Of a DNA stretch of 35,767 nt, positions 3,670-18,033 are shown piece by piece (position 1 is the stretch's first letter; every line of letters begins with the position of its first letter). The stretch comes from Promethearchaeota archaeon (GTDB taxonomy: Archaea > Asgardarchaeota > Lokiarchaeia > Sigyniarchaeales > SOKP01): contig JAHPZE010000036.1 in assembly GCA_019058365.1 (NCBI GenBank), forward strand, positions 1 to 35,767. The letters are read 5' to 3'. A program made the position numbers and the translations under genes. A model generated the notes under the pieces. The model was not told the DNA's origin. It did no database searches and was given only the letters and a program-made list of their open reading frames with translations.

Positions 3670-4164
3670 ATGTCTAAGATGTTAGTTGTATATTACTCTC
3701 TCACAGGAAATACAAAATTTATTGCAGAAGCAATAGCAGAAGCAATAAATGCTGATATTCTCGAGTTAAAACCTGTGAAAGAACTTGATGCTGAAAGTGG
3801 GATGAAATATTTTTGGGGTGGATTTCAAGCTACAATGAAAAAGAAACCCAAATTAAAAGAGTTTGAAATAAACCCCCTCGATTATGATTTAATTTTTTTA
3901 GGAACTCCTGTATGGGCATGGACATTCTCCCCCCCAATTCGTTCTTTCTTAAAGAAATATAATCTTTCAGGTAAGAATATAGCTCTTTGGGTATGTGCTG
4001 GAGGAGATGGTATAAAATCAATGAACCGATTTAAGGAGGCTCTAAAGGATACAAATATCAATGGCGAAATTCGTTTTAAAGAACCAAAACAGAATGCACC
4101 AGAAAATGCTAAAGAAAAAGCAATAGCTTGGGCTAAAGATATTATTCAAAAGATAAAGAATTAA
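3670..4164 (+). CDS. Flavodoxin
   Basis: YYSLTGNT FMN phosphate loop, LGTPVW motif, strong AGGAGG SD. Confidence 0.92.
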   Translation: MSKMLVVYYSLTGNTKFIAEAIAEAINADILELKPVKELDAESGMKYFWGGFQATMKKKPKLKEFEINPLDYDLIFLGTPVWAWTFSPPIRSFLKKYNLSGKNIALWVCAGGDGIKSMNRFKEALKDTNINGEIRFKEPKQNAPENAKEKAIAWAKDIIQKIKN

Positions 4165-4179
4165 GGTATGTGATATAAA

Positions 4180-4956
4180 ATGGGACAATATGTAAAATTA
4201 TTCAAGTTCAGAAAGCTCTTAATGTTTTTATGGGTTATTTTATTGCCCATAACCTTCAATTGGATGTCCCCTGTTCTTATTATTATGGGAGGTTTTGAAG
4301 GATATATTAGCATGAGTTTTGTTATTTTCGCCGTATGGTTTATTTCATCACTATTTTTCGGTAGAACTTTTTGTGCTTATAGTTGTCAATGGGGTGCTGC
4401 TCAAGAGGTTCTTGGTGATTGCATTCCCAAGCAATTAGATCCTGCAAAGAAACAGAAGAGAAGAAAAATCAAATATATTATATTTATCATCTGGATAGTA
4501 TTAGTGGCGTTAGGACCAATAATAAATTTAGGGTACCAATACGGATTCAATCCATTTTATCCAACTCCAGAAGATCCTACGGGAATTATCTCATGGAATG
4601 AGTTTGCGATTGGACTGATGATTTTCTATTTTGGAATAATCGGATCAGTAGTGATTCTATTTACAATCGTAGGAGGAAAGAGATCTTTTTGTAATTATGC
4701 ATGTCCAATGGGAGTTTTAGGAATTCTTGGAACAAAAGTAAAGAATGCCCTCAAATATCCATCATTACATTTGGAAGTTGATATTGAAAAATGTACAAAC
4801 TGTAAACAATGTTCAAAAGCGTGTGAAATGGGGCTTGATGTGAATGAATTGGTTCAATCAGGAAATATGTATGATCCTGATTGCATTCTTTGTGGTAGTT
4901 GTGTTTCTACTTGTCGACAGGATGTTATAAGCTATGCTTGGAAATGGAGTAAGTGA
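4180..4956 (+). CDS. Membrane 4Fe-4S binding protein (NapH/MauN-like)
   Basis: TM helices, GRTFCAYSCQWG and RSFCNYACPMG motifs, and two C-terminal CxxCxxCxxxC motifs. Confidence 0.88.
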   Translation: MGQYVKLFKFRKLLMFLWVILLPITFNWMSPVLIIMGGFEGYISMSFVIFAVWFISSLFFGRTFCAYSCQWGAAQEVLGDCIPKQLDPAKKQKRRKIKYIIFIIWIVLVALGPIINLGYQYGFNPFYPTPEDPTGIISWNEFAIGLMIFYFGIIGSVVILFTIVGGKRSFCNYACPMGVLGILGTKVKNALKYPSLHLEVDIEKCTNCKQCSKACEMGLDVNELVQSGNMYDPDCILCGSCVSTCRQDVISYAWKWSK

Positions 4957-5037
4957 TATATCTCTTAAATACAATCTTTAAAACTAAAAAGACTTATAAA
5001 TTTTTTTTAAAAATTAAATAAAGAAAAAGGTGGATAA

Positions 5038-5832
5038 ATGATAAAGATAATAAAAAAGTATCCTTTAACAAGTTATTTTGTAATTGCTTGGATATCGACA
5101 TGGTTATTAGTAATGCCATTAGTCTTAACTGGTTTAGGAATTCTACATGTGAATATAATTTGGCATTTTCTAGGTCCATTAGGTCCAACAATTTCTGCAA
5201 TTATAGTAATATACGTGTCATCAAAAAGAGAAGGACTTAAAAAGTTAAAAGACTCAATTATCAAATGGAGAATCGGTGTTTTTTGGATTCTTTTTTCTGC
5301 TCTAATTATGCCAGCTTTCTTAATCTTAACAATTTTAATAAACTTGGCTTTTACAGGGAATTTTATTGATTTAGGTGGTTATCTTATCAATGAAGGAATT
5401 ACTAACTTTATTTCATTTTTAATTTGGATATGGGTTGGAGCTATTTCTTATGGCATATTCGAAGAGATCGGGTGGAGAGGATATGCTTTACCCAAGTTGC
5501 AAGAAAAATATAGTCCATTAACATCAACTATTATATTAGCCGTTGGTTGGGGTTTTTGGCATACACCAATGTTTTTTTACCGATTTAGTATAGATATACT
5601 ATTCGGATGGCTTTATGGACTCTTTCTTGGAGCAATAATTTTAACATTTATTTATAATAGTTCTGGAGGAAGCACGTTTGCAGCAATACTTTTCCATATC
5701 TCGAATAATATTTGTTGGCTATTCAATATAGCTGAAATTCAGATGTTTTTAACAATAATGATTACTTTACTTGTTTTTATAATTTTAATTATTTGGAAAA
5801 AGAGATTATCTACAAAAAAATTTTCAAATTGA
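5038..5832 (+). CDS. CPBP (CAAX prenyl protease 2/Abi) family intramembrane metalloprotease
   Basis: EEIGWRGY, WGFWH and AILFHISNN motifs in a polytopic protein. Confidence 0.92.
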   Translation: MIKIIKKYPLTSYFVIAWISTWLLVMPLVLTGLGILHVNIIWHFLGPLGPTISAIIVIYVSSKREGLKKLKDSIIKWRIGVFWILFSALIMPAFLILTILINLAFTGNFIDLGGYLINEGITNFISFLIWIWVGAISYGIFEEIGWRGYALPKLQEKYSPLTSTIILAVGWGFWHTPMFFYRFSIDILFGWLYGLFLGAIILTFIYNSSGGSTFAAILFHISNNICWLFNIAEIQMFLTIMITLLVFIILIIWKKRLSTKKFSN

Positions 5833-5904
5833 AATCTTAATTGATAATTTTTTTTAAACTCATTTTTAAACTAAATAATATTAACAAAAGGATTTCGAAA
5901 TTTA

Positions 5905-5948
5905 AAAAAGAATTTAAATTATCGTTATTTCCTATCAAACATAACGTT
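5905..5948 (+). promoter_or_regulatory. BRE/TATA promoter followed directly by a ModE-type palindrome
   Basis: TTTAAATT at 5913-5920, then ATCGTTAT-TTCCTATCAAAC-ATAACGTT (CGTTAT-N12-ATAACG, 5923-5946), matching the CGnTAT-N12-ATAnCG frame of ModE boxes. Confidence 0.6.
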
Positions 5949-5975
5949 ATAAAAATTAAAAAAAAACTGAATAAA

Positions 5976-7157
5976 ATGAATAAAAAAGATATTATAATTG
6001 GAGTGTTACTTATAGGAATAGTTGGTGTATCTTGTGGATTAGGTTTTGTTCTAGTTTCTTGGACACCAAAAGAGACACAACAAACCCCTACTTACCTTTC
6101 AGGATTACCTGATAACTGGGATACAGCTCCTAATTCTACATATATCATTTTAAACAATCAAACACAGAGTAATATTAAAATATATTTTAAAGATATATTA
6201 GAGAAGATACAAACTTTTCAAAATACTCAAAAGGGTGCTTATGATACAGGCATAGAATTGAAAACTATAATTGACCCTGAGACTGATATCCCAATAACAG
6301 GTATTAGCATAACAGATTTATTCGATCAATATCACACCTTTTTTCCTGGAGCTATTAATTTTGTATCTAAACAAGATGATTTTGGTCAAACTAATGTTTT
6401 TAGTACGAGTGCTGCTGATATATTAGAAAAAATAGAAGATGGAGAAGAAGATTTAATTATTGCTATAGCCGCAAATAAGCAATGGTTAGCGGAATCTCCA
6501 TTAGGAGCTAAATATGGCAATTTTACATTAATTGGAGAGTCTATGGATGCAAAAATATATAATCTGGAACAAATTAACGTTCTTAGCAATTGGACTTTAG
6601 ATGTATATGTAGATGGTCTATTAAAACTTTCTTTACAACCTGATAATATTACAGATGCTTCTTATCAATATGATTATATTTATTCATATGATAGAAGTGA
6701 TGACTGGAATCTTAATAGACATTACTGGGGAATTAACATCTCAATGATTTGTGATTGGGTTAGTCTTAATGATTCTGTTGATTTTGAGTTAAAAGCATTA
6801 GCTGCTGATAATTGGGCTGCTCCTCATGGGAAACCGTCTAAACGTGGTTTAACTGAAACTGAGGTATATCATGGATTAGAATTTAATTCAACTTATTGGG
6901 ATTATATTAATGAAACAGAAGCTAATCCTGATGGAGTTCCATTGCCTGATGATTATGATGGGTTACCTATTCTTTTAGCATATGAAATTCAAGCCTTGGG
7001 GGAGTATGATTTAATATCAGGTGATACTAATCCGGCATGGTCTTCAAGTAAAATTTGTGGTTTTGCTCATGGACCTTATGTAGTAATAATACCTGGTAGA
7101 ACAAGATCTAATCAAATAAGAATGATAAATGCAATCGATATCATAACTAATCCATAA
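5976..7157 (+). CDS. Membrane-anchored extracellular protein with two degenerate sulfite-oxidase (Oxidored_molyb)-like domains
   Basis: Probable start ATG 5976 (MNKKDIIIG, N-terminal TM); the ORF-track extension to 5841 overlaps the promoter. Fold landmarks occur twice: TGISITDL..IIAIAANKQWL..GNFTLI and WGINIS..ALAADNW..ILLAYE..GPYVVIIPG..IRMINAIDI. No Cys at the Mo-ligand position. Confidence 0.6.
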   Translation: MNKKDIIIGVLLIGIVGVSCGLGFVLVSWTPKETQQTPTYLSGLPDNWDTAPNSTYIILNNQTQSNIKIYFKDILEKIQTFQNTQKGAYDTGIELKTIIDPETDIPITGISITDLFDQYHTFFPGAINFVSKQDDFGQTNVFSTSAADILEKIEDGEEDLIIAIAANKQWLAESPLGAKYGNFTLIGESMDAKIYNLEQINVLSNWTLDVYVDGLLKLSLQPDNITDASYQYDYIYSYDRSDDWNLNRHYWGINISMICDWVSLNDSVDFELKALAADNWAAPHGKPSKRGLTETEVYHGLEFNSTYWDYINETEANPDGVPLPDDYDGLPILLAYEIQALGEYDLISGDTNPAWSSSKICGFAHGPYVVIIPGRTRSNQIRMINAIDIITNP

Positions 7158-7227
7158 ATATTCAAATTATATTTTTTTTTATTTTTGATTAGAAATTTTA
7201 AAATTTAATACTAAATTCAAGATTAAT

Positions 7228-8124
7228 ATGTTTTTAATGAAACGAATAAACATCTCATCGATATTAATCGTAATTTTAACCTTTTTAGCACCATTCATAT
7301 TTATAAGCAATACTATAGCGTATCCTGGTGAGGGTGATTGTGCGGGATATCATGGGATAACATATATTGACATTCCTGTTGATAATGATGCATTGATAAT
7401 ACTAGATGGTGACCCTTCTGAAAATTTTTGGACAGAAAATGGTAATCAAAAAGGAAAAGTTGAAATTAAATTAGCTGAGATTAAAGTAGGAGAGGAAATT
7501 CCTGAAATTTATACATTAAATGCAACATTCATTATGAACTCTGAATATTTATATATTTTGTGTCAGTGGATAGATAATACACCACTTTATGATTATCCTC
7601 CAGAGAAAGATGGAATTGCATTCTGTTGGAATATTAATGCTCCGAATTTTTCAGCCTATTATGTTGCAGATATGAACACAATTCATATGGGAGGTGGACG
7701 TGTAGATGCGTGGAGATGGGTTTATTCAAATTTTGTCTCTTCTGGAGAAGAACACTTATGTGGAGATGACTGTTTTGATGAAAATGGATGGGTTGATGGA
7801 AATCCTGAAGCAAACAGTATAAATGTTGCTTATACCAATACAGGAAATTTATATAATTTAGAAATGAAAAGAAAATTAATTACAAATGAATATTATGATG
7901 TTCAATTCGATGAAGCAAAAATCTACAAGTTTAATATTGCTATTTTAAATGATAGTTATGGAGTAGATCATGCTATATCATGGACTTATGCTCTTGACCT
8001 TAGAGAACCATCTAACATAATTCCCTTTTTCCAACTGAACTTTATAATAATATTATTATTAATAGCGATAATTTTAACTAAAATCAATTTTAAAAAGGTC
8101 TTTAATAATATTGATAAAAACTAG
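7228..8124 (+). CDS. Secreted, C-terminally anchored DOMON/ethylbenzene-dehydrogenase-gamma-like heme-binding protein
   Basis: Signal peptide, LDGDPSENFW, YLYILCQWID, DGIAFCW, HMGGGRVDAWRW, LEMKRKL..YDVQF and DHAIS (candidate Met/His ligands). C-terminal IPFF + TM + basic tail. Confidence 0.6.
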   Translation: MFLMKRINISSILIVILTFLAPFIFISNTIAYPGEGDCAGYHGITYIDIPVDNDALIILDGDPSENFWTENGNQKGKVEIKLAEIKVGEEIPEIYTLNATFIMNSEYLYILCQWIDNTPLYDYPPEKDGIAFCWNINAPNFSAYYVADMNTIHMGGGRVDAWRWVYSNFVSSGEEHLCGDDCFDENGWVDGNPEANSINVAYTNTGNLYNLEMKRKLITNEYYDVQFDEAKIYKFNIAILNDSYGVDHAISWTYALDLREPSNIIPFFQLNFIIILLLIAIILTKINFKKVFNNIDKN

Positions 8125-8665
8125 GAATTTTTATATTCTAGTCGTCTCAATTCTAATAGGTTTAACCACGGTTTGGCTGTCAATATTAGCCATAATTGAA
8201 TTAGATATTGAACCATTTCAAGACCCTAATAAGATAGAAATAAAAGGAAATGGTGTAAATAGAGAAATAATATTATCATTAAATGACTTAAAATCTGAAC
8301 AATACCTTCAAGTCGAAGATAGAGTTTATCATATTATGAATAGTTTTGAAACTGAATATGATGTTATATATTCAGGAGTATCTTTATGGAGTATATTAGA
8401 AATAGAAGGCATACTAAATGATAATCCAATAACATTAACTTTCCAATTTTTTGCTCGTGATGGTTATCGTTCTCCAAAACCACTTAATTTGTCTATTGCT
8501 CAATTTAATCCTGAATTAGTTATTTTAGCTTATGCAAAAGATGGAAATCAGTTATTTGATGAAGGACCATTGAGATCAGTTATTGACCAATCTATTATAC
8601 CTTCTGGTGAATATAGTTCTCAATACTCTGTTCAAATGTTAAAAGAGATTATTATAAACGAATAA
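8111..8665 (+). CDS. Membrane-anchored, Cys-less molybdopterin-oxidoreductase-fold protein
   Basis: TTG start and N-terminal TM. IEIKG..LSLNDL, YSGVSLWSIL, FFARDGY, ILAYAKDGNQL, GPLRSV and VQMLKEI parallel the catalytic domain at 12206. The protein has no Cys. Confidence 0.75.
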   Translation: MIKTRNFYILVVSILIGLTTVWLSILAIIELDIEPFQDPNKIEIKGNGVNREIILSLNDLKSEQYLQVEDRVYHIMNSFETEYDVIYSGVSLWSILEIEGILNDNPITLTFQFFARDGYRSPKPLNLSIAQFNPELVILAYAKDGNQLFDEGPLRSVIDQSIIPSGEYSSQYSVQMLKEIIINE

Positions 8666-8678
8666 TAGGTTCGTATCA

Positions 8679-9332
8679 ATGGATATTAAAAAAGATGATA
8701 AAATTGTAGAAGATGAATTAAAAGAGATAGAATCTCATTCAAGAACAGGAGATTTCAAAGAAACTGGATTTATACAAGAGGGGAAAAAAAAAATTGTTCT
8801 ATTAGATCTTTTATATTCTACTATAATTGGTGTTATGGGAGGAATAATTTCAAGTCTTATACCATTTAGTTTATTAATAAAAGTTTGGTATCCATTAACG
8901 GGAGGCACGCAGTTAGTAAGTGGACATCATGTTATATGGGCATCAATAGTATACGGATTAACTAAGAAAAAAAAGAATATTCTTCTAACTATGCTTTCTA
9001 AAGGATTTCTTGAATTTCTTTTTGGAGATGCCTGGGGTTTATTAATTATTTTTGTGAATTTAATGGAGGGGTTCTTCTTAATAAGTGGTTTTGTATTCAT
9101 GGAAAAGATTGGAGAAGGAGAAACTAAACTTGGTTGGGCTATTGCGGGAGGATTCGGTAACTTTTTTCAAGCTCCATTTTTCTGGATTATTAATCAACGT
9201 TGGTATTTACATTGGATACTTTGGGTCTTAGCTTTTATATTTGCTTTTATATCAGGGATGTTAATAACAGGATTATTAGGCAGAACAGTGAAAAACTATT
9301 TGATTAAAGCTGGTGTACCTACTACTTTTTGA
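8679..9332 (+). CDS. ECF transporter substrate-binding S component (YkoE-like)
   Basis: About 6 TM helices, Gly-rich, directly upstream of ECF ATPase and T genes. Confidence 0.75.
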   Translation: MDIKKDDKIVEDELKEIESHSRTGDFKETGFIQEGKKKIVLLDLLYSTIIGVMGGIISSLIPFSLLIKVWYPLTGGTQLVSGHHVIWASIVYGLTKKKKNILLTMLSKGFLEFLFGDAWGLLIIFVNLMEGFFLISGFVFMEKIGEGETKLGWAIAGGFGNFFQAPFFWIINQRWYLHWILWVLAFIFAFISGMLITGLLGRTVKNYLIKAGVPTTF

Positions 9333-9338
9333 AATGAG

Positions 9339-11165
9339 GTGTTGCATTTTCTCTCTAATCAAAAAATAGCCATAGCTTTCAAAAATTTTTCTTTTATCTA
9401 TGGAAGAGATAAAAATCAGGAGCTTGCTGTTTCTAATATCTCTTTTGAATTGAAAGAAGGGAATGTCTTAATCTTAGCAGGTCCAAGCGGAAGTGGTAAA
9501 TCTACTATATCATTTGCTATTAATGGGATAATACCATGGCGTCAAAAAGGGTTTGTTAAAGGAGATGTTGAAATATTTGGAAAAAGTATTTGGGATTATG
9601 ATTTTTCAGAATTATCAATGTTAGTGGGATTAGTAAAACAAAACCCTGTTGATCAGCTAGTTACATTTAAGGTAAAAGATGAAATCGCATTTGGTCTTGA
9701 AAATTTGAATTATCCTCCAGAAATAATTGAAGAGAAAGTTAAAAATATCTCCAATTTGATGGGTATTAATCATTTATTAAATCGAGATATAGATCAATTA
9801 AGTGGAGGACAAAAACAACTTGTTGTATTATGTTCCTTTTTAGTAATGAATCCAAAAATACTTGTTCTTGATGAACCAATTGCTTTTTTAGATCAAAATT
9901 CGGAAAGTTTTTTATTAAATCGATTGAAAAAGCTCATCAAATCAAATAAAATTCCTTTAACATTAGTTATAATAGAGCATAGATTATCTAGAGTAATGGA
10001 TGTAGCAGATAATTTAATAGTTTTAGATGAAAACGGAAAAATATCCATGAATAATAATATTAAACAGATTATAACTAATGAATTTGAAATATTACGTTTA
10101 AGCAATGTACGAGTCCCTTGGATTGTAGATATATTTCATGATTTTAAAAAGAATAATGTAAAGTTTCAAAAATTTAAAAATCCAACAAATTTTAAAGAAT
10201 TGCTTGAAATTCTTGATCAATTAAATAAAGAAGATCTAAACGAATTATATCAGATTTTAATTGATAAAGAAATTAATCCTGTAGAATTACGAAAATACGA
10301 GATGTATAATGAATTAATAGAATTTAATGATACATATATCGAATCATTAAAACACTTTAAAGATAAATATGAAAGAAATGAAATTAAGGATGAAAATCAT
10401 GAATATAATATAATTTTAGAAACCAAGAATCTTAATTTTAAATATCCAAATAGTGGAATTCTAGCGGTAAAAAATTTATCTCTGAAAATAAATCGAGGTG
10501 ATTTCATAGGATTAATAGGTTCTAATGGCTCAGGAAAGACTACTCTGTTATATTTACTTGCGAATTTATACGAGCCAACATCAGGAGAGATTCTTTACAA
10601 GAATAAAAATCTAAAAGAAATTAATCAATATGAATATGCGAAAGAAATTGGATTTATATTCCAAAATCCTGAAAATATGATTTTCAAATCTTCAATTAGA
10701 GAAGAATTGTTATATGGACCTAAAAATTTTGGAATTATTAATGAAATAAAAGAAAGTTATATTGCTAGGTTATTGAATCTAATAGGAAAAAATAATTCTG
10801 AGGAAAATCCATATAACTTAAGTTGGGGACAGAAGAGGAGGTTGAATCTAAGCTCTATTTTTGTATATAATCCTGAAATTATCTTATTAGATGAGCCATT
10901 TATAGGTCAAGATCAAAAGACTATAAACTCTTTGATCGAGACTCTTTATATTGAAAATAAAAGAGGAAAGACCATAATTATTTCTTCTCATGATTATCAT
11001 TTACTCCTAAAATATACAGAAAGAATAATTGAACTGAATAAAGATGGTACGCTACGGGATTATGATATTAGTAGTAATTATTTTCAAAAACATAGAAATT
11101 TAGGACCTATAATTTTATTAGATGAGATCAAAAAAAATATTAATAAGAAATTAGATGCCGAATAA
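9339..11165 (+). CDS. ECF transporter fused double ATPase (EcfA-A')
   Basis: Two Walker A motifs (GPSGSGKS, GSNGSGKT), QNP Q-loops, LSGGQ and LSWGQ signatures, two LDEP Walker B motifs. Confidence 0.93.
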   Translation: MLHFLSNQKIAIAFKNFSFIYGRDKNQELAVSNISFELKEGNVLILAGPSGSGKSTISFAINGIIPWRQKGFVKGDVEIFGKSIWDYDFSELSMLVGLVKQNPVDQLVTFKVKDEIAFGLENLNYPPEIIEEKVKNISNLMGINHLLNRDIDQLSGGQKQLVVLCSFLVMNPKILVLDEPIAFLDQNSESFLLNRLKKLIKSNKIPLTLVIIEHRLSRVMDVADNLIVLDENGKISMNNNIKQIITNEFEILRLSNVRVPWIVDIFHDFKKNNVKFQKFKNPTNFKELLEILDQLNKEDLNELYQILIDKEINPVELRKYEMYNELIEFNDTYIESLKHFKDKYERNEIKDENHEYNIILETKNLNFKYPNSGILAVKNLSLKINRGDFIGLIGSNGSGKTTLLYLLANLYEPTSGEILYKNKNLKEINQYEYAKEIGFIFQNPENMIFKSSIREELLYGPKNFGIINEIKESYIARLLNLIGKNNSEENPYNLSWGQKRRLNLSSIFVYNPEIILLDEPFIGQDQKTINSLIETLYIENKRGKTIIISSHDYHLLLKYTERIIELNKDGTLRDYDISSNYFQKHRNLGPIILLDEIKKNINKKLDAE

Positions 11166-12030
11166 AAACAAAGCTTTAGATCATAAGAAATATTTATTTG
11201 CATATGTTCCAGGAAACTCTCTAATACATAAATTAAATCCCATTTCTAAGATTATTTTTCTGGTTTTACTGACAATCATAACTTTTATGGTTAAAAGTTT
11301 AATTTTATTAACAATAATTTTTATCGCAATATTGGGATTAGTGCTAGTCAGCAAAATATCTTTTAAAAATTTATTTAGAAAGTTAAAATTCATAATTATT
11401 CTTCTATGTTTTAGCGTGATTTTGAACATATTTTTTAATGCCATTCCTTCTGGAAATGAAACAGTTATATTTTATCTTTTCAATTTATCTTTCCTACCCA
11501 TAAGACGATTAGCTGTGTATTATGCCTTAAAAGCATCTTTAATAATCCTAATATTATTCACATCAACTATAATTTATAGTAATACAACTTCACCAAAAGA
11601 CTTCCTATACTCACTTATAAGATTAAAAGTGCCATATAGATATTGTTTTTCATTAATGGTTGGAATCAGATACATTCCATTGATTGAACAAGAAGCTAAA
11701 ACAATAGCTTTAGCTCAAAGAGCAAGAGGGTTTGGACTTGAAAAAGCAAACTCAGTGAAAAAAGCTTATAAACTGATTTTTGAAAGATTAGTGGCAACTT
11801 TAATTTCAATCCTGAGAAAAGGGCACATAACTTCAATTTCAATGGAAAATCGTTGTTTTGGTATTCATAAAAAAAGAACCAATTTAAAAATTATAAAGTT
11901 CAGACTAATTGATGGCGTTTTTATCTTTTTCTGCATATTTGCTTTTTCGTTTTTTATATTGTATTTACTTCAATCATTACCAATTCCTCCATTACCTTCT
12001 TTATATCATTTGTTTTTGACAATATTCTAA
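11155..12030 (+). CDS. ecfT: ECF transporter transmembrane T component
   Basis: SLIHKLNPISK, RYIP, AQRARG and SMENRCF (XRX coupling motifs). Confidence 0.92.
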   Translation: MPNKNKALDHKKYLFAYVPGNSLIHKLNPISKIIFLVLLTIITFMVKSLILLTIIFIAILGLVLVSKISFKNLFRKLKFIIILLCFSVILNIFFNAIPSGNETVIFYLFNLSFLPIRRLAVYYALKASLIILILFTSTIIYSNTTSPKDFLYSLIRLKVPYRYCFSLMVGIRYIPLIEQEAKTIALAQRARGFGLEKANSVKKAYKLIFERLVATLISILRKGHITSISMENRCFGIHKKRTNLKIIKFRLIDGVFIFFCIFAFSFFILYLLQSLPIPPLPSLYHLFLTIF

Positions 12031-12205
12031 AATTACTAGGATAGATACTGAAGAAGTTTAATTCAATTATTATAATTAAACTCTTATAATTTATAGCAAG
12101 GAACTTTTAAAATTAAGAAAACCTAATTGATATAATAAAAAATAGTATCATTCTCCGTCATTACTCTTATAAGATATTACAAAGTTTAGATTCGAAGTAA
12201 TCTTT

Positions 12206-13255
12206 ATGGATAGAAAGAGAAAGATGTATTTAAAATACATTGGAATTTTACTTTTATTATGTCTTCCCTTATTTGGGCTGATGGGGCTCGTATTGAGCAG
12301 AAATATTATTACTCCTAATGACGAGTTTTTTGTAGTGTCCAAGGGGGAATCTCCATCTATTCCTGTCAATACATGGAGTTTAACGATATATGGACATGTT
12401 AATAACACTTTAATTTTTACTTATTCCAACTTTACATCCTTACCTTCAAAAGAAGTTATTGCAACACTACAATGTGTTGATGGACCATCTGGTACTGCCA
12501 GATGGAAGGGTATTCCAATTAAAGATTTACTAAATTTAGCACAGGTGCAAATAGGGGCTGTGGATGTTGTTTTTTATGCAGCAGATGATTATTCCTCCTC
12601 ACTGACTATTGAAGAGGTAAGTATAGAAAATGTTCTATTAGCATATGAAATGAATGGTGAACCTCTTCCTGTTGATCAGGGATTTCCAGTCAGAGTAGTT
12701 GCTCCAAACCACTTAGGATATAAGTGGGTGAAATGGGTTGTTAGAATGGAGATTGTAGATTATAATTATATAGGTTTTTGGGAGAGTCGTGGGTGGAGTG
12801 ATAATGCCTATCGTACACCTGTCACCGATTGGATTTACCATGCTGGATTATTGGCGATTTCTTTTCTCTTGGGGGGGATTGCGTTAATGTCAGGATTAAA
12901 AAAGTCGCCTGTTACTGATTTCTTTCATGATCTTCCTAAGTTTGTAAATAAGAAATTCCATATAGCAATTGGAATTGGATATTTTCTCATAGCTCTAAGT
13001 ACTTTCTTCTATTGGGTTATTTCCACAATTTTGAACAGAGGAGCTATTTTTTATACAATTCATGGCATTACGGCTTTAATATCCATTATTCTTATAATAC
13101 CTGGTGCTATTACGGGTGTTAAGAAATCAAGAAAAAGAGATAATGAAAAAAGAACATGGCATTACAAATGGAATTTGTATTCCTTTTATTTCTTTTTAAC
13201 CACGATTATTCTAGGATTTTTATTAATTTTTATTAGATGGCTTTATTTATACTAA
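12206..13255 (+). CDS. Sulfite-oxidase-family (MsrP/YuiH-like) molybdoenzyme fused to a 4-TM cytochrome b561-like domain
   Basis: ITPNDEFF, LQCVDG (Mo-ligand Cys), WKGIP, LLAYEMNGEPLPVDQGFPVR, GYKWVKW, GFWESRGW. C-terminal TMs each carry a His (WIYH, KFH, TIHG, TWH). Confidence 0.88.
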   Translation: MDRKRKMYLKYIGILLLLCLPLFGLMGLVLSRNIITPNDEFFVVSKGESPSIPVNTWSLTIYGHVNNTLIFTYSNFTSLPSKEVIATLQCVDGPSGTARWKGIPIKDLLNLAQVQIGAVDVVFYAADDYSSSLTIEEVSIENVLLAYEMNGEPLPVDQGFPVRVVAPNHLGYKWVKWVVRMEIVDYNYIGFWESRGWSDNAYRTPVTDWIYHAGLLAISFLLGGIALMSGLKKSPVTDFFHDLPKFVNKKFHIAIGIGYFLIALSTFFYWVISTILNRGAIFYTIHGITALISIILIIPGAITGVKKSRKRDNEKRTWHYKWNLYSFYFFLTTIILGFLLIFIRWLYLY

Positions 13256-13382
13256 CTTGGAAAAGTATTAAAGAAGCAGTCCATATTCATCATTCATTAT
13301 TAAAATTCGAGTAGATTTTTAAATAATTAATGGCTTCTTGGAGAGCCTCATTATTCATACTTATTAGAAGTGTAATGAAAAA

Positions 13383-13661
13383 TTGGAAGTAGATGTTCTT
13401 TATTTCGCTGAATTTAAGAATATTACAGGAAAAGAGAGAGAAAAGTTTAAATTATCCAAGTCCACTTTAGCAGAATTACTAAATATATTATTTGAAAAAT
13501 ATAAATTGAGGACTTTAATTTGGGATGAAAAAAATCAAAAGTTGCATAATTTGGTTTCAGTTATAATTAACAACCAAGCTACACATGAGAAAAATCCATC
13601 CTTAATTAATTTAAATGATAGAGATACAATTACCTTCTTATTACCAGTTTCAGGAGGATAG
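13383..13661 (+). CDS. moaD: MoaD/ThiS/SAMP family ubiquitin-like sulfur carrier
   Basis: TTG start, VLYFAEF, and the C-terminal LPVSGG di-glycine. Confidence 0.88.
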   Translation: MEVDVLYFAEFKNITGKEREKFKLSKSTLAELLNILFEKYKLRTLIWDEKNQKLHNLVSVIINNQATHEKNPSLINLNDRDTITFLLPVSGG

Positions 13662-13825
13662 ACGCAAATGAATTCTAGCGAGAAAATAAAATTATGGAAG
13701 AGAGAAGCTTTTAATAATTAATTAATTAAAAATGGTCTATTGAAAATTAATTAATGAAAATTGACTATTTTTAACTTAGATTAGAAAAATATCTTCTAAA
13801 AAATTTTTGTGAAATTAGAAAATAG

Positions 13826-14395
13826 TTGATAAGAATGATAAAAAAATCAAAGATTTCAGAAGATCCTAAAAAGAAAACTCCTGAAAAAATTAATTTAGCT
13901 CTAATCATAGTAAGCACAAGTCAATTTTGTGAGCTAAAGGCGGAAAAGAAAACTTCAGATAAGGTAATTCCTAAAGTAGAGAGATTATTGAACAATAACC
14001 AATCAATTTCATTAGTTTTTTCTGAAATTATCACAGATTCAGAAGACCATATAAATAAAGTTTTGGTAGAATTAATGAAAGATGATAAAATTGAAGCTAT
14101 AATATTTAGTGGAGGTATGGGATTATCTAAAAAAGATATTACATATGAAACTTTAAAGCCTCATTTCGAAAAAAGAATAAACGGTTTTGAAGAACTCTTC
14201 AGATCTCTTTCTTATAATGAAATTGGCACATCTGCAATGTTATATAGAGCAACTGCGGGTATTTTAAGAAGTAAAAAAAAGAGTAAAGCCGTCTTTTTAC
14301 TTCCAGGTTCTCCAGATGCTGTGAGACTTGCTCTTCAATATGTAATAATTCCCGAATTAGGGCATATTCTCTCTATAGCCAATAAAGAAGAGTAG
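13826..14395 (+). CDS. moaB: MoaB/MogA family molybdopterin adenylyltransferase-like protein with atypical motifs
   Basis: IIVSTS, SGGMGLSKKDITYE, GFEELFR, AMLYRA, LPGSPDAV. The start may be ATG 13835. Confidence 0.85.
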   Translation: MIRMIKKSKISEDPKKKTPEKINLALIIVSTSQFCELKAEKKTSDKVIPKVERLLNNNQSISLVFSEIITDSEDHINKVLVELMKDDKIEAIIFSGGMGLSKKDITYETLKPHFEKRINGFEELFRSLSYNEIGTSAMLYRATAGILRSKKKSKAVFLLPGSPDAVRLALQYVIIPELGHILSIANKEE

Positions 14396-14470
14396 GATCA
14401 TATAAGATAGTATCCTATTTAGCATCAATGTAATCTAAAATTATTTTAGAGATGGTTAATTCTTAAACAT

Positions 14471-15343
14471 ATGGTTGATACGACCGGAAAAGTAAAAGAA
14501 ATACAAGAGAAATATAAAATAATTGGTAGAACAGAAGAACTAAGACAAATTGTTTTAGCACATTCAGTAAGTAAGAACATTTTAATTGAAGGTGAAGTTG
14601 GGGTTGGAAAAACAACCTTAGCTAAAGCTGTAGCTTCTTTTTTTGATTCTGACTTCTATCGTGTTGACTGTAGTGAGGAATTATTACCTCATAATCTAGT
14701 AGGTTATTTTGATCCTCCTCTCGTAATTTCACAAGGTTATACCGAAGATTCTTATAAATACGGTCCATTGGCGTTAGCTATGCTGAATGGAGGCTGCTTA
14801 TTCATAAATGAAATAAATAGGATGCCAGAAAGTACCCAAAATTCATTACTAACATCGTTGGATGAAAGAATCCTAAAAATACCTAAATTGAAAACGATAA
14901 AAGCCAATAAAGAATTCTTTGTTATCGCAACCCAAAATCCAAGCGCCCATGTTGGAGTCACTGTACTGGGAGAAGCCTTAAAGGATAGATTCATATGGAT
15001 CAACCTTAGTTATCAGCCTCCCGAAGAAGAATATCTTATTATTAAACAAGAAGCGGATTTAAATAGTGATGGTGCTGATAAGATTGCACAAATCTCTCAA
15101 AATATAATACAAGTAACTAGAAAAAGTACTTCTGTCCGGAGAGGAAGTTCAATAAGAGGAGCTATTGATTTAGCTACCCTGATCAATCAATATGATAACG
15201 ATAATAGTACCAAAAATTGGGTTGAAGCCGCAGTAATGGCATTATACAACAAAATCGAACTGGAAGACGGATTGACTCAATCTAAAAAAGAAGTTGTCAC
15301 TAATATTGTATTGGCTGTTTTAAATAAATCGGATTTTCAATAA
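14471..15343 (+). CDS. MoxR family AAA+ ATPase
   Basis: Walker A GEVGVGKT, Walker B variant LFINEINR, ATQNP, ALKDRF Arg finger, SIRG sensor 2. Confidence 0.92.
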   Translation: MVDTTGKVKEIQEKYKIIGRTEELRQIVLAHSVSKNILIEGEVGVGKTTLAKAVASFFDSDFYRVDCSEELLPHNLVGYFDPPLVISQGYTEDSYKYGPLALAMLNGGCLFINEINRMPESTQNSLLTSLDERILKIPKLKTIKANKEFFVIATQNPSAHVGVTVLGEALKDRFIWINLSYQPPEEEYLIIKQEADLNSDGADKIAQISQNIIQVTRKSTSVRRGSSIRGAIDLATLINQYDNDNSTKNWVEAAVMALYNKIELEDGLTQSKKEVVTNIVLAVLNKSDFQ

Positions 15344-15387
15344 TCGATGATTTCTCTAAGGAAGAAGCCGAAGAGAATGAGAAAAGA

Positions 15388-16452
15388 TTGCATGTAAGAC
15401 TTACTGAAAGTCGCCCGGATAAAGAAATTTTAGAGTATGAAATAATTAGAAAGAAAAGGAAAAAACCAGATTATTATAGACACCTAGCTGACACATTAGA
15501 TTACAAGCAAATCAAAGAATTAACATATCTAGCGATAAAACATAAAAATCTTGAAGCTTTAATGGGATTACTCAAAGCGAACGTTTATGCTTCTACTGAT
15601 GCTCTGGATACCGAACAGGGGGTACAATTTTTCTCAGAGAAAGCCGCGGAATCAGGAGATTTTATGCCAGAAGTCTATTTTTTTATAAGACGCCCTATCT
15701 CTGATAAATATAAGTCAGTTTTTAGACGTTTAGCACGGCAAAGTATTTTAAAATTATCTTTAAAAATAACAAGTAAGGGAATCAGAGGGGAATTTAAAAA
15801 AACTGTTCCCTATTATCAAATGGGTATGCCTGAATTTAGTATGGATGAAACTATTCAACATAATCCACTAAAAATTTATAAAAGAAGTTTGAATTATAAA
15901 GATATTTATGGAATTGAGAGAAAGCGACAAAAAAGAAAAGTGGTATTGATATTGGATACAAGTGGCAGTATGTATGGTCGTTTGTTACTCAATGCCGCTC
16001 TTACAGCCTCAGTTTTAGCTTATAACATGGAAAAAGAAGACTTTGCTATTATTTTATTTAACTCCACTGCAATGATTATGAAAAAAATTGACCAAAAAAG
16101 ACCTATTATTTCAATTATTGATGATATCTTAGATTCTGAGGCTGTTGGCTTTACAAATATTTTTATTGGTTTAGAAAAAGGATTAAAAGAATTAAATAAA
16201 ATTAAAGAAAAGAGAAAAAGCCTTTTTGGTATATTAATAACCGATGGCAACTATAATCGAGGTGATGATCCTATAACTTTAGCAAAGGCTTTTCCTAAAC
16301 TTCACGTGATCGGAATACCATCAAATAATGAAGCAGATCAAGGGATTGAAACATGCCGAGAAATTGCTAAAGCTGGACGGGGTAAATTTTATGCAGTAAA
16401 TGATTATAAAGAAATTCCACGAGCCTTAATAGAATTATTATCTCAAACTTAA
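15388..16452 (+). CDS. VWA (MIDAS) domain protein, MoxR partner; true start uncertain
   Basis: DTSGSM, GFTNI and ITDG MIDAS residues. The frame stays open upstream to 15328 and encodes acidic IDDFSKEEAEENEKR. Confidence 0.88.
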   Translation: MHVRLTESRPDKEILEYEIIRKKRKKPDYYRHLADTLDYKQIKELTYLAIKHKNLEALMGLLKANVYASTDALDTEQGVQFFSEKAAESGDFMPEVYFFIRRPISDKYKSVFRRLARQSILKLSLKITSKGIRGEFKKTVPYYQMGMPEFSMDETIQHNPLKIYKRSLNYKDIYGIERKRQKRKVVLILDTSGSMYGRLLLNAALTASVLAYNMEKEDFAIILFNSTAMIMKKIDQKRPIISIIDDILDSEAVGFTNIFIGLEKGLKELNKIKEKRKSLFGILITDGNYNRGDDPITLAKAFPKLHVIGIPSNNEADQGIETCREIAKAGRGKFYAVNDYKEIPRALIELLSQT

Positions 16453-16709
16453 TTCAAAACTACTTTATACTCAATGCCAGAAAATTAATGGATATAGTAT
16501 TAGTCTTAAAGTATTTATGAGTTATATCCTAAAAAGTAAACTTGAATGATCAATTATTTGGATATTTGGACTTCTTTTAAAATTCTATAGTCTTAAAAAT
16601 ATGGAATTCAATATATTTATAAGTTAAAAGGTAAAAAAATAATAATCAAAAGATACATTTATTTCAAAGATTTATATGAAATATCTAAATTAACAAAGGT
16701 GAATGATTT

Positions 16710-17288
16710 ATATTTAATGAAGAAGACTATCGCTATGTTTTTAAGGTTTGTCTAATAGGAGCTGGTGGAGTAGGAAAAACGTGTATTGCTAGAAGATTAT
16801 GTTTTAATACATTTAATATGAACACTCAATTAACTGTTGGAATAGATTTTTATACGTATGATATTCCTATAATAGTCAATGGAAAGGAAACTAAAATAAG
16901 GCTTTCGATATGGGACTTTGGGGGTCAAGAGCGTTTCAAATCACTTTTCAGATATTATATAGGCGGAGCAAATGGAATCTTCTTAGTATTTGATTTATTA
17001 CAAATGGAAAGTCTTATTAAATTAGACTGGTGGTACGATAAATTAGTAGAGTATAATGTTCAGGATCGCCCTAAAATTCTTATAGGCACTAAACTTGATT
17101 TGGCTGAAGCAAAGGATAGGAATATTAAAATTGATGAACTAATTATTGAGCAATTCCTTAAAACACATAATGAAAAAGATTTCATTAAAACATCTTCTTT
17201 AGATAATATAAATATTCGATATATTTTTAAAGAGATCGTCAAGAAAATTTTAGATTTTCATGAATTTGATTATGAAGAAATATATTGA
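16710..17288 (+). CDS. Small Rab/Roc-like GTPase; N-terminus extends upstream of the ORF-track start
   Basis: In-frame upstream sequence encodes FNEEDYRYVFKVCLIGAGGVGKT (P-loop). Downstream motifs TVGIDF, WDFGGQ, GTKLD, KTSS. Probable ATA start at 16710, 7 nt after GGTGA. Confidence 0.85.
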   Translation: MFNEEDYRYVFKVCLIGAGGVGKTCIARRLCFNTFNMNTQLTVGIDFYTYDIPIIVNGKETKIRLSIWDFGGQERFKSLFRYYIGGANGIFLVFDLLQMESLIKLDWWYDKLVEYNVQDRPKILIGTKLDLAEAKDRNIKIDELIIEQFLKTHNEKDFIKTSSLDNINIRYIFKEIVKKILDFHEFDYEEIY

Positions 17289-17448
17289 CTTTCTTGATTT
17301 TTAAATATTCACTTAAAATTTTTAGATATTTTTGTACTAGTTATAAATAATAGATTTTTTTTTATTGAATTAGGTATAATAGAATAATCATTTGAAATGC
17401 TAAAAACTTCAAAAATTAATTCATCATAAATACATATGTGAGATTATT

Positions 17449-18033
17449 ATGGCATTCAACCAAGAAGAAAAGCCCGCTTACATTTTCAAGCTTGTTTTAA
17501 TAGGGTCAGGTGGTGTAGGAAAGACTTGTATTGCTCGTAGATTATGTTTTGATACTTTTGATGCAAATACTCAAATGACAATTGGAATTGATTTTTATAC
17601 ATATAACATCCCTATTATAGTAAACGCTGAGGAGACTTATGTTAGACATACTATATGGGATTTTGGTGGACAGGAACAATTCAAACGGCTATTTAATTAT
17701 TATATTGATGGAGCGAATGGTATTTTTTTAGTGTTTGATTTATTAAACATGGAAACCTTAACTCGGTTGGCATGGTGGTATGATCAGGTAAGAGCACACA
17801 ACCTTCATGATCATCCGAAAATCCTAATTGGAACTAAACTTGATTTGATTCAAGAGAATAATAAGAAAAAAAAGGTTGATGAATTAATAATTGAACAGTT
17901 CCTTAAAACACATGATGAACAAGATTATTATGAAACGTCTTCAAAGGAAAATATAAATATCCTCCATTGTTTTAAAGAAATGACTAAAAAAATCCTAGAT
18001 TCTCATAAATTAGATTATGAAAAAATCGTATAA
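17449..18033 (+). CDS. Small Rab/Roc-like GTPase, tandem paralog of upstream gene
   Basis: GSGGVGKT, TIGIDF, WDFGGQ, GTKLD, ETSS. Confidence 0.93.
   Translation: MAFNQEEKPAYIFKLVLIGSGGVGKTCIARRLCFDTFDANTQMTIGIDFYTYNIPIIVNAEETYVRHTIWDFGGQEQFKRLFNYYIDGANGIFLVFDLLNMETLTRLAWWYDQVRAHNLHDHPKILIGTKLDLIQENNKKKKVDELIIEQFLKTHDEQDYYETSSKENINILHCFKEMTKKILDSHKLDYEKIV

Follow-up and report, generated by a model that had tools for sequence, protein, structure and literature searches.

A dedicated ECF transporter with tethered PruR-like domains as a probable importer of ready-made tungsten/molybdenum-pterin cofactor in Asgard archaea

By its build, the closest described relative of the system reported here is YkoEDC of Bacillus subtilis, a group I energy-coupling factor (ECF) transporter for thiamine/hydroxymethylpyrimidine (HMP). 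Its PF09819 S component (YkoE, PDB code 5EDL), an ATPase with two ATP-binding cassette (ABC) domains, and a CbiQ-type T component are encoded in one operon. Classical ECF transporters work without binding proteins, and the dedicated metal systems CbiMNQO and NikMNQO (NikK/NikL) add further subunits in the membrane or outside the cytoplasm. According to the usual description, cells have to make the Mo/W-pterin cofactor themselves. Here we describe a gene cluster at positions 5973-12030 of a 35,767-nucleotide stretch of DNA (contig JAHPZE010000036.1 of assembly GCA_019058365.1, Promethearchaeota archaeon; "the window" hereafter), which has the build of YkoEDC and probably encodes a dedicated ECF importer that salvages ready-made W/Mo-pterin cofactor.

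The extracytoplasmic part of the cluster has its own described counterpart in PruR of Agrobacterium (Atu3496; PDB codes 7kos/7kou, 7kom, 7kp2, and 7rkb). Like the product of 8111-8665 in the window, PruR is a small, exported protein with a sulfite-oxidase fold that lacks the Mo-ligating Cys. It holds the pterin between a conserved Tyr and Trp with a hydrogen bond from an Asn, carries a PW motif in place of the Cys, binds monapterin-type pterins in a shortened cleft, and signals to DcpA (GGDEF-EAL, cyclic di-GMP) (PMC11194511).

A functional parallel is offered by nematodes with dietary uptake of molybdenum cofactor (Moco), which likewise keep Moco enzymes, have lost the synthesis, and depend on an outside source, although they are eukaryotes and the mechanism is unrelated. 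We know of no Moco transporter identified in nematodes. Dietary reliance is described for Haemonchus (PMC7619442), and a review states that most organisms cannot acquire the cofactor as a nutrient (PMC9026282). A comparative-genomics survey of 2018 counted several hundred prokaryotes with molybdoenzymes and no synthesis pathway ("orphan molybdoprotein" organisms) and left them unexplained (PMC6147048). Our literature search, which covered few subscription journals, found no description of a prokaryotic importer of Moco or molybdopterin (MPT).

The cluster comprises six co-directional genes with tight or overlapping spacing, all on the + strand of the window (TM, transmembrane):

5973-7157, +: two-domain membrane-anchored surface protein; N-terminal TM helix and two Cys-less domains of the sulfite-oxidase/PruR fold (the second probable)
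7228-8124, +: DOMON/EB_dh-like surface protein, accessory; signal-like N terminus and C-terminal TM anchor
8111-8665, +: single-domain PruR-like Cys-less ectodomain; N-terminal TM anchor followed by ∼145 residues; the proposed capture domain
8679-9332, +: ECF S component; distant member of PF09819 (YkoE family), 29.1 bits against a cut-off of 25.2
9339-11165, +: fused A-A′ ECF ATPase of 608 residues; PF00005 twice
11155-12030, +: ECF T component, CbiQ family; PF02361, 94.5 bits

The A-A′ ATPase matches TIGR04521 with 335.6 bits (cut-off 330) and TIGR04520 with 324.6 bits (cut-off 315). The T component reaches 75.3 bits against TIGR02454, which lies under the cobalt-specific cut-off. Adjacent or overlapping genes thus supply what makes up a dedicated (group I) ECF transporter: one S component, two ABC domains of the ECF type, and one T component. 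An earlier note on this DNA had likewise read a complete S, A-A′, T set from the sequence. From CbiMNQO and NikMNQO, as they are generally described, the system is set apart by a different S family, by the metal-ion cargo of those systems, and by their lack of a sulfite-oxidase-fold domain.

Whereas the build is that of YkoEDC, the S component itself is barely alignable to YkoE, its sole PDB match (5EDL, E 0.39, 13.6 bits). A search returned 320 homologues, the best 120 of which share 70-98% identity and form a conserved clade of their own. In every related Loki-type locus that we read, the gene order is the same: large surface protein, (DOMON-like protein), single-domain protein, S, A-A′, T.

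The distribution of the S component argues for a role in cofactor supply. We surveyed the same 151 Asgard genomes for every marker and scored a genome as S-positive if it gave a match to the protein query or to PF09819. Surveyed genomes carry G labels (G000 is the source genome), loci that were read L labels, contigs C labels, and families f labels. The S component is found in 54 of the 151 genomes, MoaC in 74, MoeA in 77, a TupA-like protein in 52, and an aldehyde:ferredoxin oxidoreductase (AOR) in 148. The earlier note had asked whether the system co-occurs with a lack of moaA/moaC, and the outcome is strongly positive: MoaC was detected in 0/54 S-positive but in 74/97 S-negative genomes. 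The S-positive genomes also have next to no MoeA (1/54) or TupA (2/54), whereas MoaC or MoeA is present in 79/97 of the S-negative ones. In families f1 and f2, all 15 S-positive genomes came up empty for both MoeA and TupA. Both states coexist within eight genera, indicating that the split arose repeatedly.

The source genome itself needs the cofactor. It encodes 23 Mo/W-pterin enzymes, namely 16 with AFOR_N (AOR), six of the dimethyl sulfoxide reductase superfamily with PF00384 (two of the DmsA family, two Fdh-like, and two FwdB, formylmethanofuran dehydrogenase B), and one of the sulfite-oxidase family with PF00174. Profile searches of this genome gave no match to Mob_synth_C/MoaA, MoaC, MoaE, or MoeA_N, and tblastn queries taken from the operon of a relative retrieved generic radical-SAM similarity only. 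TupA and TupB were likewise not found in the genome, and the ECF cluster contains no SBP_bac_11 or TupA-type protein. What is kept is a gene for a MobA-like guanylyltransferase (126 bits, cut-off 164); similarly weak MobA-like matches occur in S-positive and S-negative relatives. Retention of a putative post-insertion tailoring step as the sole remaining step fits the import of metal-loaded MPT.

Comparison with congeners shows where the ECF module sits. Downstream of it, the window continues with the following genes:

12206-13255, +: sulfite-oxidase-family Mo enzyme with a four-TM DUF4079 part; PF00174 (Oxidored_molyb) 136 bits, PF13301 32 bits
13383-13661, +: moaD-like gene (ThiS fold); PF02597, 43.3 bits
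13826-14395, +: moaB (MoCF_biosynth); PF00994, 82.3 bits
14471-16452, +: MoxR AAA+ ATPase (14471-15343) and VWA protein (15388-16452); Pfam AAA_3/AAA_5 and VWA

The whole window order thus reads flavodoxin, polyferredoxin, CAAX protease, ECF module, sulfite-oxidase-family enzyme, moaD, moaB, MoxR, VWA. In the S-negative genomes G150 and G049 of the same genus, the order is flavodoxin, CAAX protease, tupA, tupB, tupC-like ATPase, (sulfite-oxidase-family enzyme), moaC, moaA, moaD, moaE, moeA, moaB, moeA, MoxR, VWA. The flanking genes of the window are 80-85% identical to those of the congeners. Because the ECF module occupies the site that holds tupABC and the moa/moe genes in these congeners, we interpret the difference as a cassette swap. 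In other S-positive genomes, MoxR-VWA comes after the ECF module and there is no moaB anywhere, and in the Loki metagenome-assembled genome (MAG) L003 the ECF module is followed by a complete moa/moe operon. The loci look like stages of one replacement, in which the window would be an intermediate with two leftover genes. The sister arrangement, TupABC with moaCADE-moeA-moaB-moeA, shares the slot, the operator (see below), and the MoxR-VWA flank, and presumably leads to the same end product. It does so by anion uptake and de novo synthesis, whereas the ECF module is proposed to take up the finished cofactor, and the two are almost mutually exclusive in Asgard archaea.

Pfam supports the Mo enzyme, moaD, and moaB that had been read from the sequence earlier. 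Among the window proteins compared, the 12206-13255 product is the only one with a Mo-ligating Cys, which aligns with the Mo-ligand Cys (QC motif) of SorA. An orthologue with 84% identity lies directly upstream of moaC in the S-negative G049, and the enzyme appears to be an ancestral neighbor and a consumer of the cofactor, outside the importer proper. Our reading of its sequence suggests an outward orientation and reveals no clear twin-arginine signal.

The window moaD is 72% identical to moaD in the intact operons of G150 and G049, and moaB is 70-72% identical to its counterparts in the same-genus operons. MoaE, the partner of MoaD, was not found in the source genome by profile search or tblastn, and a search for moaB in the 14 further S-positive genomes of f1 and f2 gave no match. 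Both genes look like remnants of a deleted moa operon; a role for them in the salvage route was rejected because moaB is missing from these 14 relatives. As a side observation, the 70-72% identity of the leftover genes is lower than the 80-85% of the flanking genes (window against L076 and L077), which may reflect relaxed selection after loss of the pathway.

The MoxR-VWA pair follows the ECF cluster in L002, L003, L070-L073, and L075 and follows the moa operon in L076 and L078-L080. It presumably resembles the CoxD/CoxE-type maturation pairs of Mo enzymes and, by this analogy, could be a cofactor-insertion chaperone.

A shared operator further connects the ECF module to the metabolism of the cofactor:

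5923-5946, no strand assigned: palindrome CGTTAT-N12-ATAACG, ∼27 nucleotides ahead of the first cluster gene's start codon, with an A/T-rich, TATA-like stretch after it

The palindrome has one exact match in the window (0.02 expected). Among the loci compared, exact copies lie only upstream of tupA in G150, G049, and G109. With up to one mismatch tolerated in each arm, 9 of 11 ECF-cluster promoters and 4 of 5 tupA promoters contain it, against a genome background of 0.022 per kb. The only other exact copy in the source genome (C49:36505-36528) lies just upstream of an AOR gene (34713-36470, − strand), next to a TTTAAAT-type box; at the other 15 AOR genes and the six PF00384 genes, the operator occurs at background level. 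Because ECF clusters, tupA operons, and one AOR gene have this operator in common, the ECF module appears to belong to a Mo/W-cofactor regulon of tungstate uptake, cofactor synthesis, and one tungsten enzyme. The "ModE-like box" noted earlier in this promoter is therefore a real palindromic element that is conserved in related promoters. As for TOBE proteins, the genome has only an open reading frame (ORF) of 90 residues, and the small TOBE protein on C48 is one candidate for binding the palindrome. A scan for bacterial sigma-70 promoters and terminators, a model unsuited to an archaeon, remained at chance level (80 promoter-like sites, 72 expected).

The surface proteins provide the link to pterin binding. 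The AlphaFold2 (AF2) model of the 8111-8665 protein has a mean confidence score (pLDDT) of 94.2 and a TM helix at residues 2-30. Its best Foldseek match is PruR 7kom (E 1.7e-7, TM score 0.71 normalised by target), followed by PruR 7kp2, 7kos, and 7rkb (with neopterin), and then by the Moco domains of SorA, chicken sulfite oxidase, and YedY. BLASTP also relates the protein to the neighboring Mo enzyme (12206-13255, E 9e-5). In the alignment, its D117-G-Y119, of which D117 is invariant and Y119 nearly so, falls on the N-x-Y motif (NDY in 7kom) through which PruR contacts the pterin. The Trp of PruR sits in an insertion of 7kom without a counterpart in the 8111-8665 profile, and no PW motif was seen. 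In contrast to PruR, the domain is TM-anchored or, in relatives, fused to a transporter subunit, and it has no DcpA: positions 3670-18033 contain no GGDEF or EAL domain, and the neighbors of 8111-8665 are ECF subunits.

For the large surface protein, an ORF can be called from 5841, but the Met at 5973 is the likelier start, which leaves ∼360 residues after the TM helix. The protein has no Pfam or NCBIfam match. Its AF2 model (pLDDT 84) has PruR 7kom as the top Foldseek match (E 3.9e-5). Residues 32-207 superimpose with sulfite oxidase and PruR at VIA Z scores of 12-13 (7kom: Z 12.8, root mean square deviation 2.1 Å over 118 residues), and residues 148-393 superimpose with plant sulfite oxidase 1ogp (VIA Z 12.2). 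In these models, the sulfite-oxidase/PruR fold is firm for domain 1 and probable for domain 2. Comparison of the two domains with the 8111-8665 family by hhalign gave probabilities of 13.9% and 36.9%, which are not significant, so the case for them is one of fold. We found 41 homologues, all named ones from Asgard archaea, and in all f1-type loci the cluster opens with a gene for such a homologue.

Neither the 5973-7157 nor the 8111-8665 family has a conserved Cys that could serve as Mo ligand. Pfam and NCBIfam scans of both proteins up to E 10 gave no match to Oxidored_molyb, and their relation to sulfite oxidases becomes visible through pairwise BLASTP, profile comparison, and folds only. 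The three surface-anchored, Cys-less sulfite-oxidase-fold domains of the earlier note are thus essentially right, two of them firmly (the single-domain protein and domain 1 of 5973-7157, by fold) and the third with probability. Its "DOMON heme protein" is a sub-threshold match with a putative heme: the 7228-8124 product matches PF09459 (EB_dh/DOMON) with 26.7 bits, under the Pfam cut-off of 33.3. The gene is present in 9 of 11 f1-type loci (L070 and L071 lack it), and no fused-type cluster (see below) contains it. The protein and its orthologues (L068, L069, and L072-L075) share a GDGDCxxYH motif near the mature N terminus, which could be a heme or metal site.

In other lineages, the capture domain is part of the S component. 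In families f7, f12, f22, and f24 (contigs named Thor-, Hermod-, and Heimdallarchaeota), the S component comprises 350-380 residues, of which the C-terminal 170 give weak matches to Oxidored_molyb. By hhalign, this C-terminal part aligns with the single-domain protein including its anchor helix (96.3% probability, E 1.8e-9, 148 columns). A hidden Markov model of the 8111-8665 family found only two weak matches among the fused S proteins (E ∼2e-5), and profile-profile comparison was needed. Such a Rosetta-stone fusion suggests that the capture domain acts at the S component, on the outside. A predicted complex of the S component with the 8111-8665 protein scored 0.46, 0.16, and 0.19, all below the mark, and carries no weight on either side of the binding question.

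The fused form is also found in Thermoplasmata and in Bacillota (Syntrophomonas, Pelotomaculum, Syntrophaceticus, and the cultured Anoxynatronum). We searched nine Bacillota loci for RF01055, the Mo/W-cofactor riboswitch. Cofactor riboswitches typically turn off synthesis and uptake of their cofactor. RF01055 lies directly 5′ of the ECF operon in two loci, L147 (46.5 bits) and L114 (68.2 bits). The two loci come from MAGs of Pelotomaculum, where the riboswitch immediately precedes the fused S gene, and Syntrophaceticus, where it immediately precedes a five-gene operon. In the Bacillota MAG L143, it is followed by tupABC and then by the ECF genes, and additional copies lie near ECF genes in three more Bacillota loci. 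The bacterial relatives thereby resemble YkoEDC in being governed by a riboswitch of the imported cofactor class, but the riboswitch is that of the Mo/W cofactor and not that of thiamine pyrophosphate (TPP). A further difference from YkoEDC is the extracytoplasmic pterin-fold domain, which is separate in the window and fused to S in relatives.

Many fused-type clusters add a calcineurin-type phosphoesterase (Metallophos) fused to another sulfite-oxidase-like domain. In Thorarchaeota and Bacillota, such fusions lie directly upstream of the fused S gene (L061:10698-12356, − strand; L114:6397-7998; L143:6391-7986; L123:6364-7995). The protein, which is absent from the window cluster, could be an ecto-enzyme that trims the guanine or cytosine dinucleotide forms of the cofactor (MGD/MCD) before uptake. 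In Anoxynatronum buryatiense, a protein of 1504 residues that carries the pterin-fold domain at least once is encoded upstream of the fused-type ECF operon (L123:1057-5571); this cultured organism is a possible experimental model.

On this basis, we propose the following mechanism. The tethered, outward-facing Cys-less domains (two in the first and one in the third protein) would bind the pterin part of free or released cofactor. The single-domain protein would work beside the S component or docked onto it, and the DOMON-like protein would have an accessory role. The S component would then move the cofactor inward across the membrane, powered by the A-A′ ATPase with the T component as scaffold. 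In the cytoplasm, the cofactor would enter AOR-type and sulfite-oxidase-type enzymes directly, and the MobA-like enzyme would make the guanine dinucleotide form for enzymes of the dimethyl sulfoxide reductase family. Expression would be governed by the palindromic operator that relatives use for the operon of tungstate uptake and cofactor synthesis. The most likely cargo is metal-loaded MPT (W- or Mo-MPT). In essence, this is the reading of the earlier note, in which Cys-less folds take hold of the cofactor outside the cell and hand it to an S component of new specificity. That reading is supported by the co-occurrence, the cassette swap, and the fusion, the last of which also lends weight to the hand-off.

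A first alternative cargo is suggested by the family of the S component, since PF09819 includes YkoE. Uptake of thiamine/HMP or another vitamin or pterin (a folate or methanopterin precursor, neopterin, or monapterin), or of heme, with an incidental link to Moco, is very unlikely in our estimate. The S component is far from YkoE, and ThiC is found in 26/26 genomes of the source family but in 0/26, 0/19, and 0/7 genomes of f7, f12, and f22, each time irrespective of the S component. Thiamine/HMP as cargo was rejected because the presence of ThiC is unrelated to the S component within families. The S component therefore does not group functionally with thiamine/HMP transporters, and the synteny is conserved in all related loci read, two points at which the earlier reading could have failed. 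The window contains no TPP or other riboswitch, and the bacterial relatives carry Moco riboswitches, not TPP ones. PruR does bind pterins of the monapterin/neopterin type, and other small pterins are compatible with the fold alone, but nothing in the context speaks for them: the complementarity (controlled against ThiC), the cassette swap, and the operator all point to Mo/W-cofactor supply. Heme could be bound by the DOMON/EB_dh-like protein, the gene of which is missing from two f1-type loci and from every fused-type cluster. Comparably slim chances apply to a non-canonical tungstate/molybdate importer, with the sulfite-oxidase-like domains binding the anion. Such an importer would be in keeping with the replacement of tupABC at the same site and under the same operator, with the riboswitch control of the Bacillota versions, which is like that of Mo/W transporters, with their position beside tupABC in L143, and with the ability of bacterial carriers to make the cofactor. 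However, the oxyanion would be useless to S-positive Asgard archaea, in which MoeA is missing from 53/54 and MoaC from 54/54 genomes, and for this reason tungstate was rejected as the cargo in Asgard archaea. In addition, the only solved Cys-less members of the domain family bind pterins, and in L143, which already has tupABC, a second importer of the anion would be redundant.

Import of a precursor, either metal-free MPT or cyclic pyranopterin monophosphate (cPMP), with completion of the cofactor in the cell, is improbable but has more in its favor. The fold binds pterins and not metals, cPMP is the most stable intermediate, moaD and moaB are kept in the window, and an oxyanion ABC transporter is left on C43. 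The bacterial carriers and L003 have the full pathway and could use a precursor. Yet cPMP requires MoaE, which was not found in the source genome, and insertion of the metal requires MoeA, which, like TupA, is missing from the 15 S-positive f1/f2 genomes. As moaB is missing from the other 14 of these, it is no general part of the system. We give hardly any credence to the view that the surface proteins work together outside the cell in redox reactions or cofactor delivery and that the ECF transporter exports cofactor to surface apo-enzymes without an evident twin-arginine signal, or is unrelated. The orientation of the adjoining Cys-bearing enzyme, the presence of the DOMON-like protein, and the flavodoxin and polyferredoxin genes upstream would suit such a module. 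However, S-positive genomes without synthesis have no cofactor to export, the domains are of the capture type and lack the Mo-ligand Cys, the flavodoxin and CAAX genes are an ancestral flank also found in the S-negative G150, and characterised ECF transporters are importers. Among the explanations considered, uptake of the finished cofactor fits all observations.

Several points nevertheless weigh against uptake of finished cofactor. The cofactor is chemically labile outside proteins. The pterins bound by PruR are small, and the length of its cleft is described as insufficient for Moco (PMC11194511); the model of the single-domain protein appears to keep a long two-strand hairpin (residues 67-91) that is truncated in PruR. 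The Fisher values for the complementarity (∼1e-23) overstate the case, since the genomes are kin, and are for descriptive use only. The S component and MoaC/MoeA are both missing from 18 of the 151 genomes, including 11 of 13 from f5 and the 100%-complete G141. The f5 genomes (G003, G045, G068, G080, G086, G097, G115, G127, G133, G142, and G145) and G141 carry 2-11 AOR genes, and no MoaC/MoeA, PF09819 S component, or single-domain protein was found in them. These genomes must have another supply route or a very divergent importer, unless genes were overlooked; in G077, an apparent case of this kind, the single-domain gene is cut by the contig end. L003 and G087 hold the importer together with synthesis genes, and MoaC is present in 5/5 bacterial carriers tested, so that in bacteria the ECF system accompanies synthesis instead of replacing it. 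The importer is therefore not always a substitute, and a precursor or an oxyanion would also fit in these carriers. The oxyanion-type ABC transporter left in the source genome and the quality of its assembly also count here: 6.6% contamination and a size 1.2 Mb above that of its congeners (3.5-3.6 Mb in the four other genomes of the genus). The bin may contain extra DNA; the contig flanks of the window are nonetheless nearest to the same genus.

The ABC transporter just mentioned lies at C43:43654-46119 (L005). It pairs an SBP_bac_11 protein (52 bits, no NCBIfam name) with a permease of the sulfate/molybdate/tungstate type (WtpB 127 bits, below cut-off), adjoins a sulfatase-like gene, and is the only one of its kind left in the genome.

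The source assembly has 4.74 Mb in 54 contigs with a marker completeness of 100%. The window has 30% G+C, and named homologues of the cluster proteins come from Loki-, Hod-, and Promethearchaeota MAGs. Two neighboring genes for small GTPases of the Ras/Roc family (16818-17288, 89.5 bits; 17449-18033, 124 bits) are a eukaryote-like trait that Asgard archaea typically show. The genes for flavodoxin and polyferredoxin precede the ECF cluster.

By kind, the system would be an ECF importer in which both the cargo and the extracytoplasmic capture domain are new. New at this locus are the in situ swap with tupABC-moa, the common operator, the leftover moaD and moaB, and the kept MobA-like gene. We consider it reasonably likely that this is the first identified prokaryotic importer of intact W/Mo-pterin cofactor, that at least eight Asgard genera independently, and probably the orphan-molybdoprotein organisms, dropped tungstate uptake and the pathway to live on the cofactor of their neighbors, and that they do so by an ECF transporter with tethered or fused capture domains. 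Substrate capture by an extracellular domain built into an ECF transporter would run contrary to the textbook definition of these systems. A dedicated importer would explain the genomes of orphan-molybdoprotein organisms and add the cofactor to the "vitamins" traded among microbes. If the proposal is true, about one-third of the sampled Asgard genomes (54/151) would rely on partners for the cofactor of their abundant AORs, a metabolic dependency hard-wired into syntrophic relatives of the eukaryotes. Such dependence on partners would bear on the difficulty of growing Asgard archaea alone.

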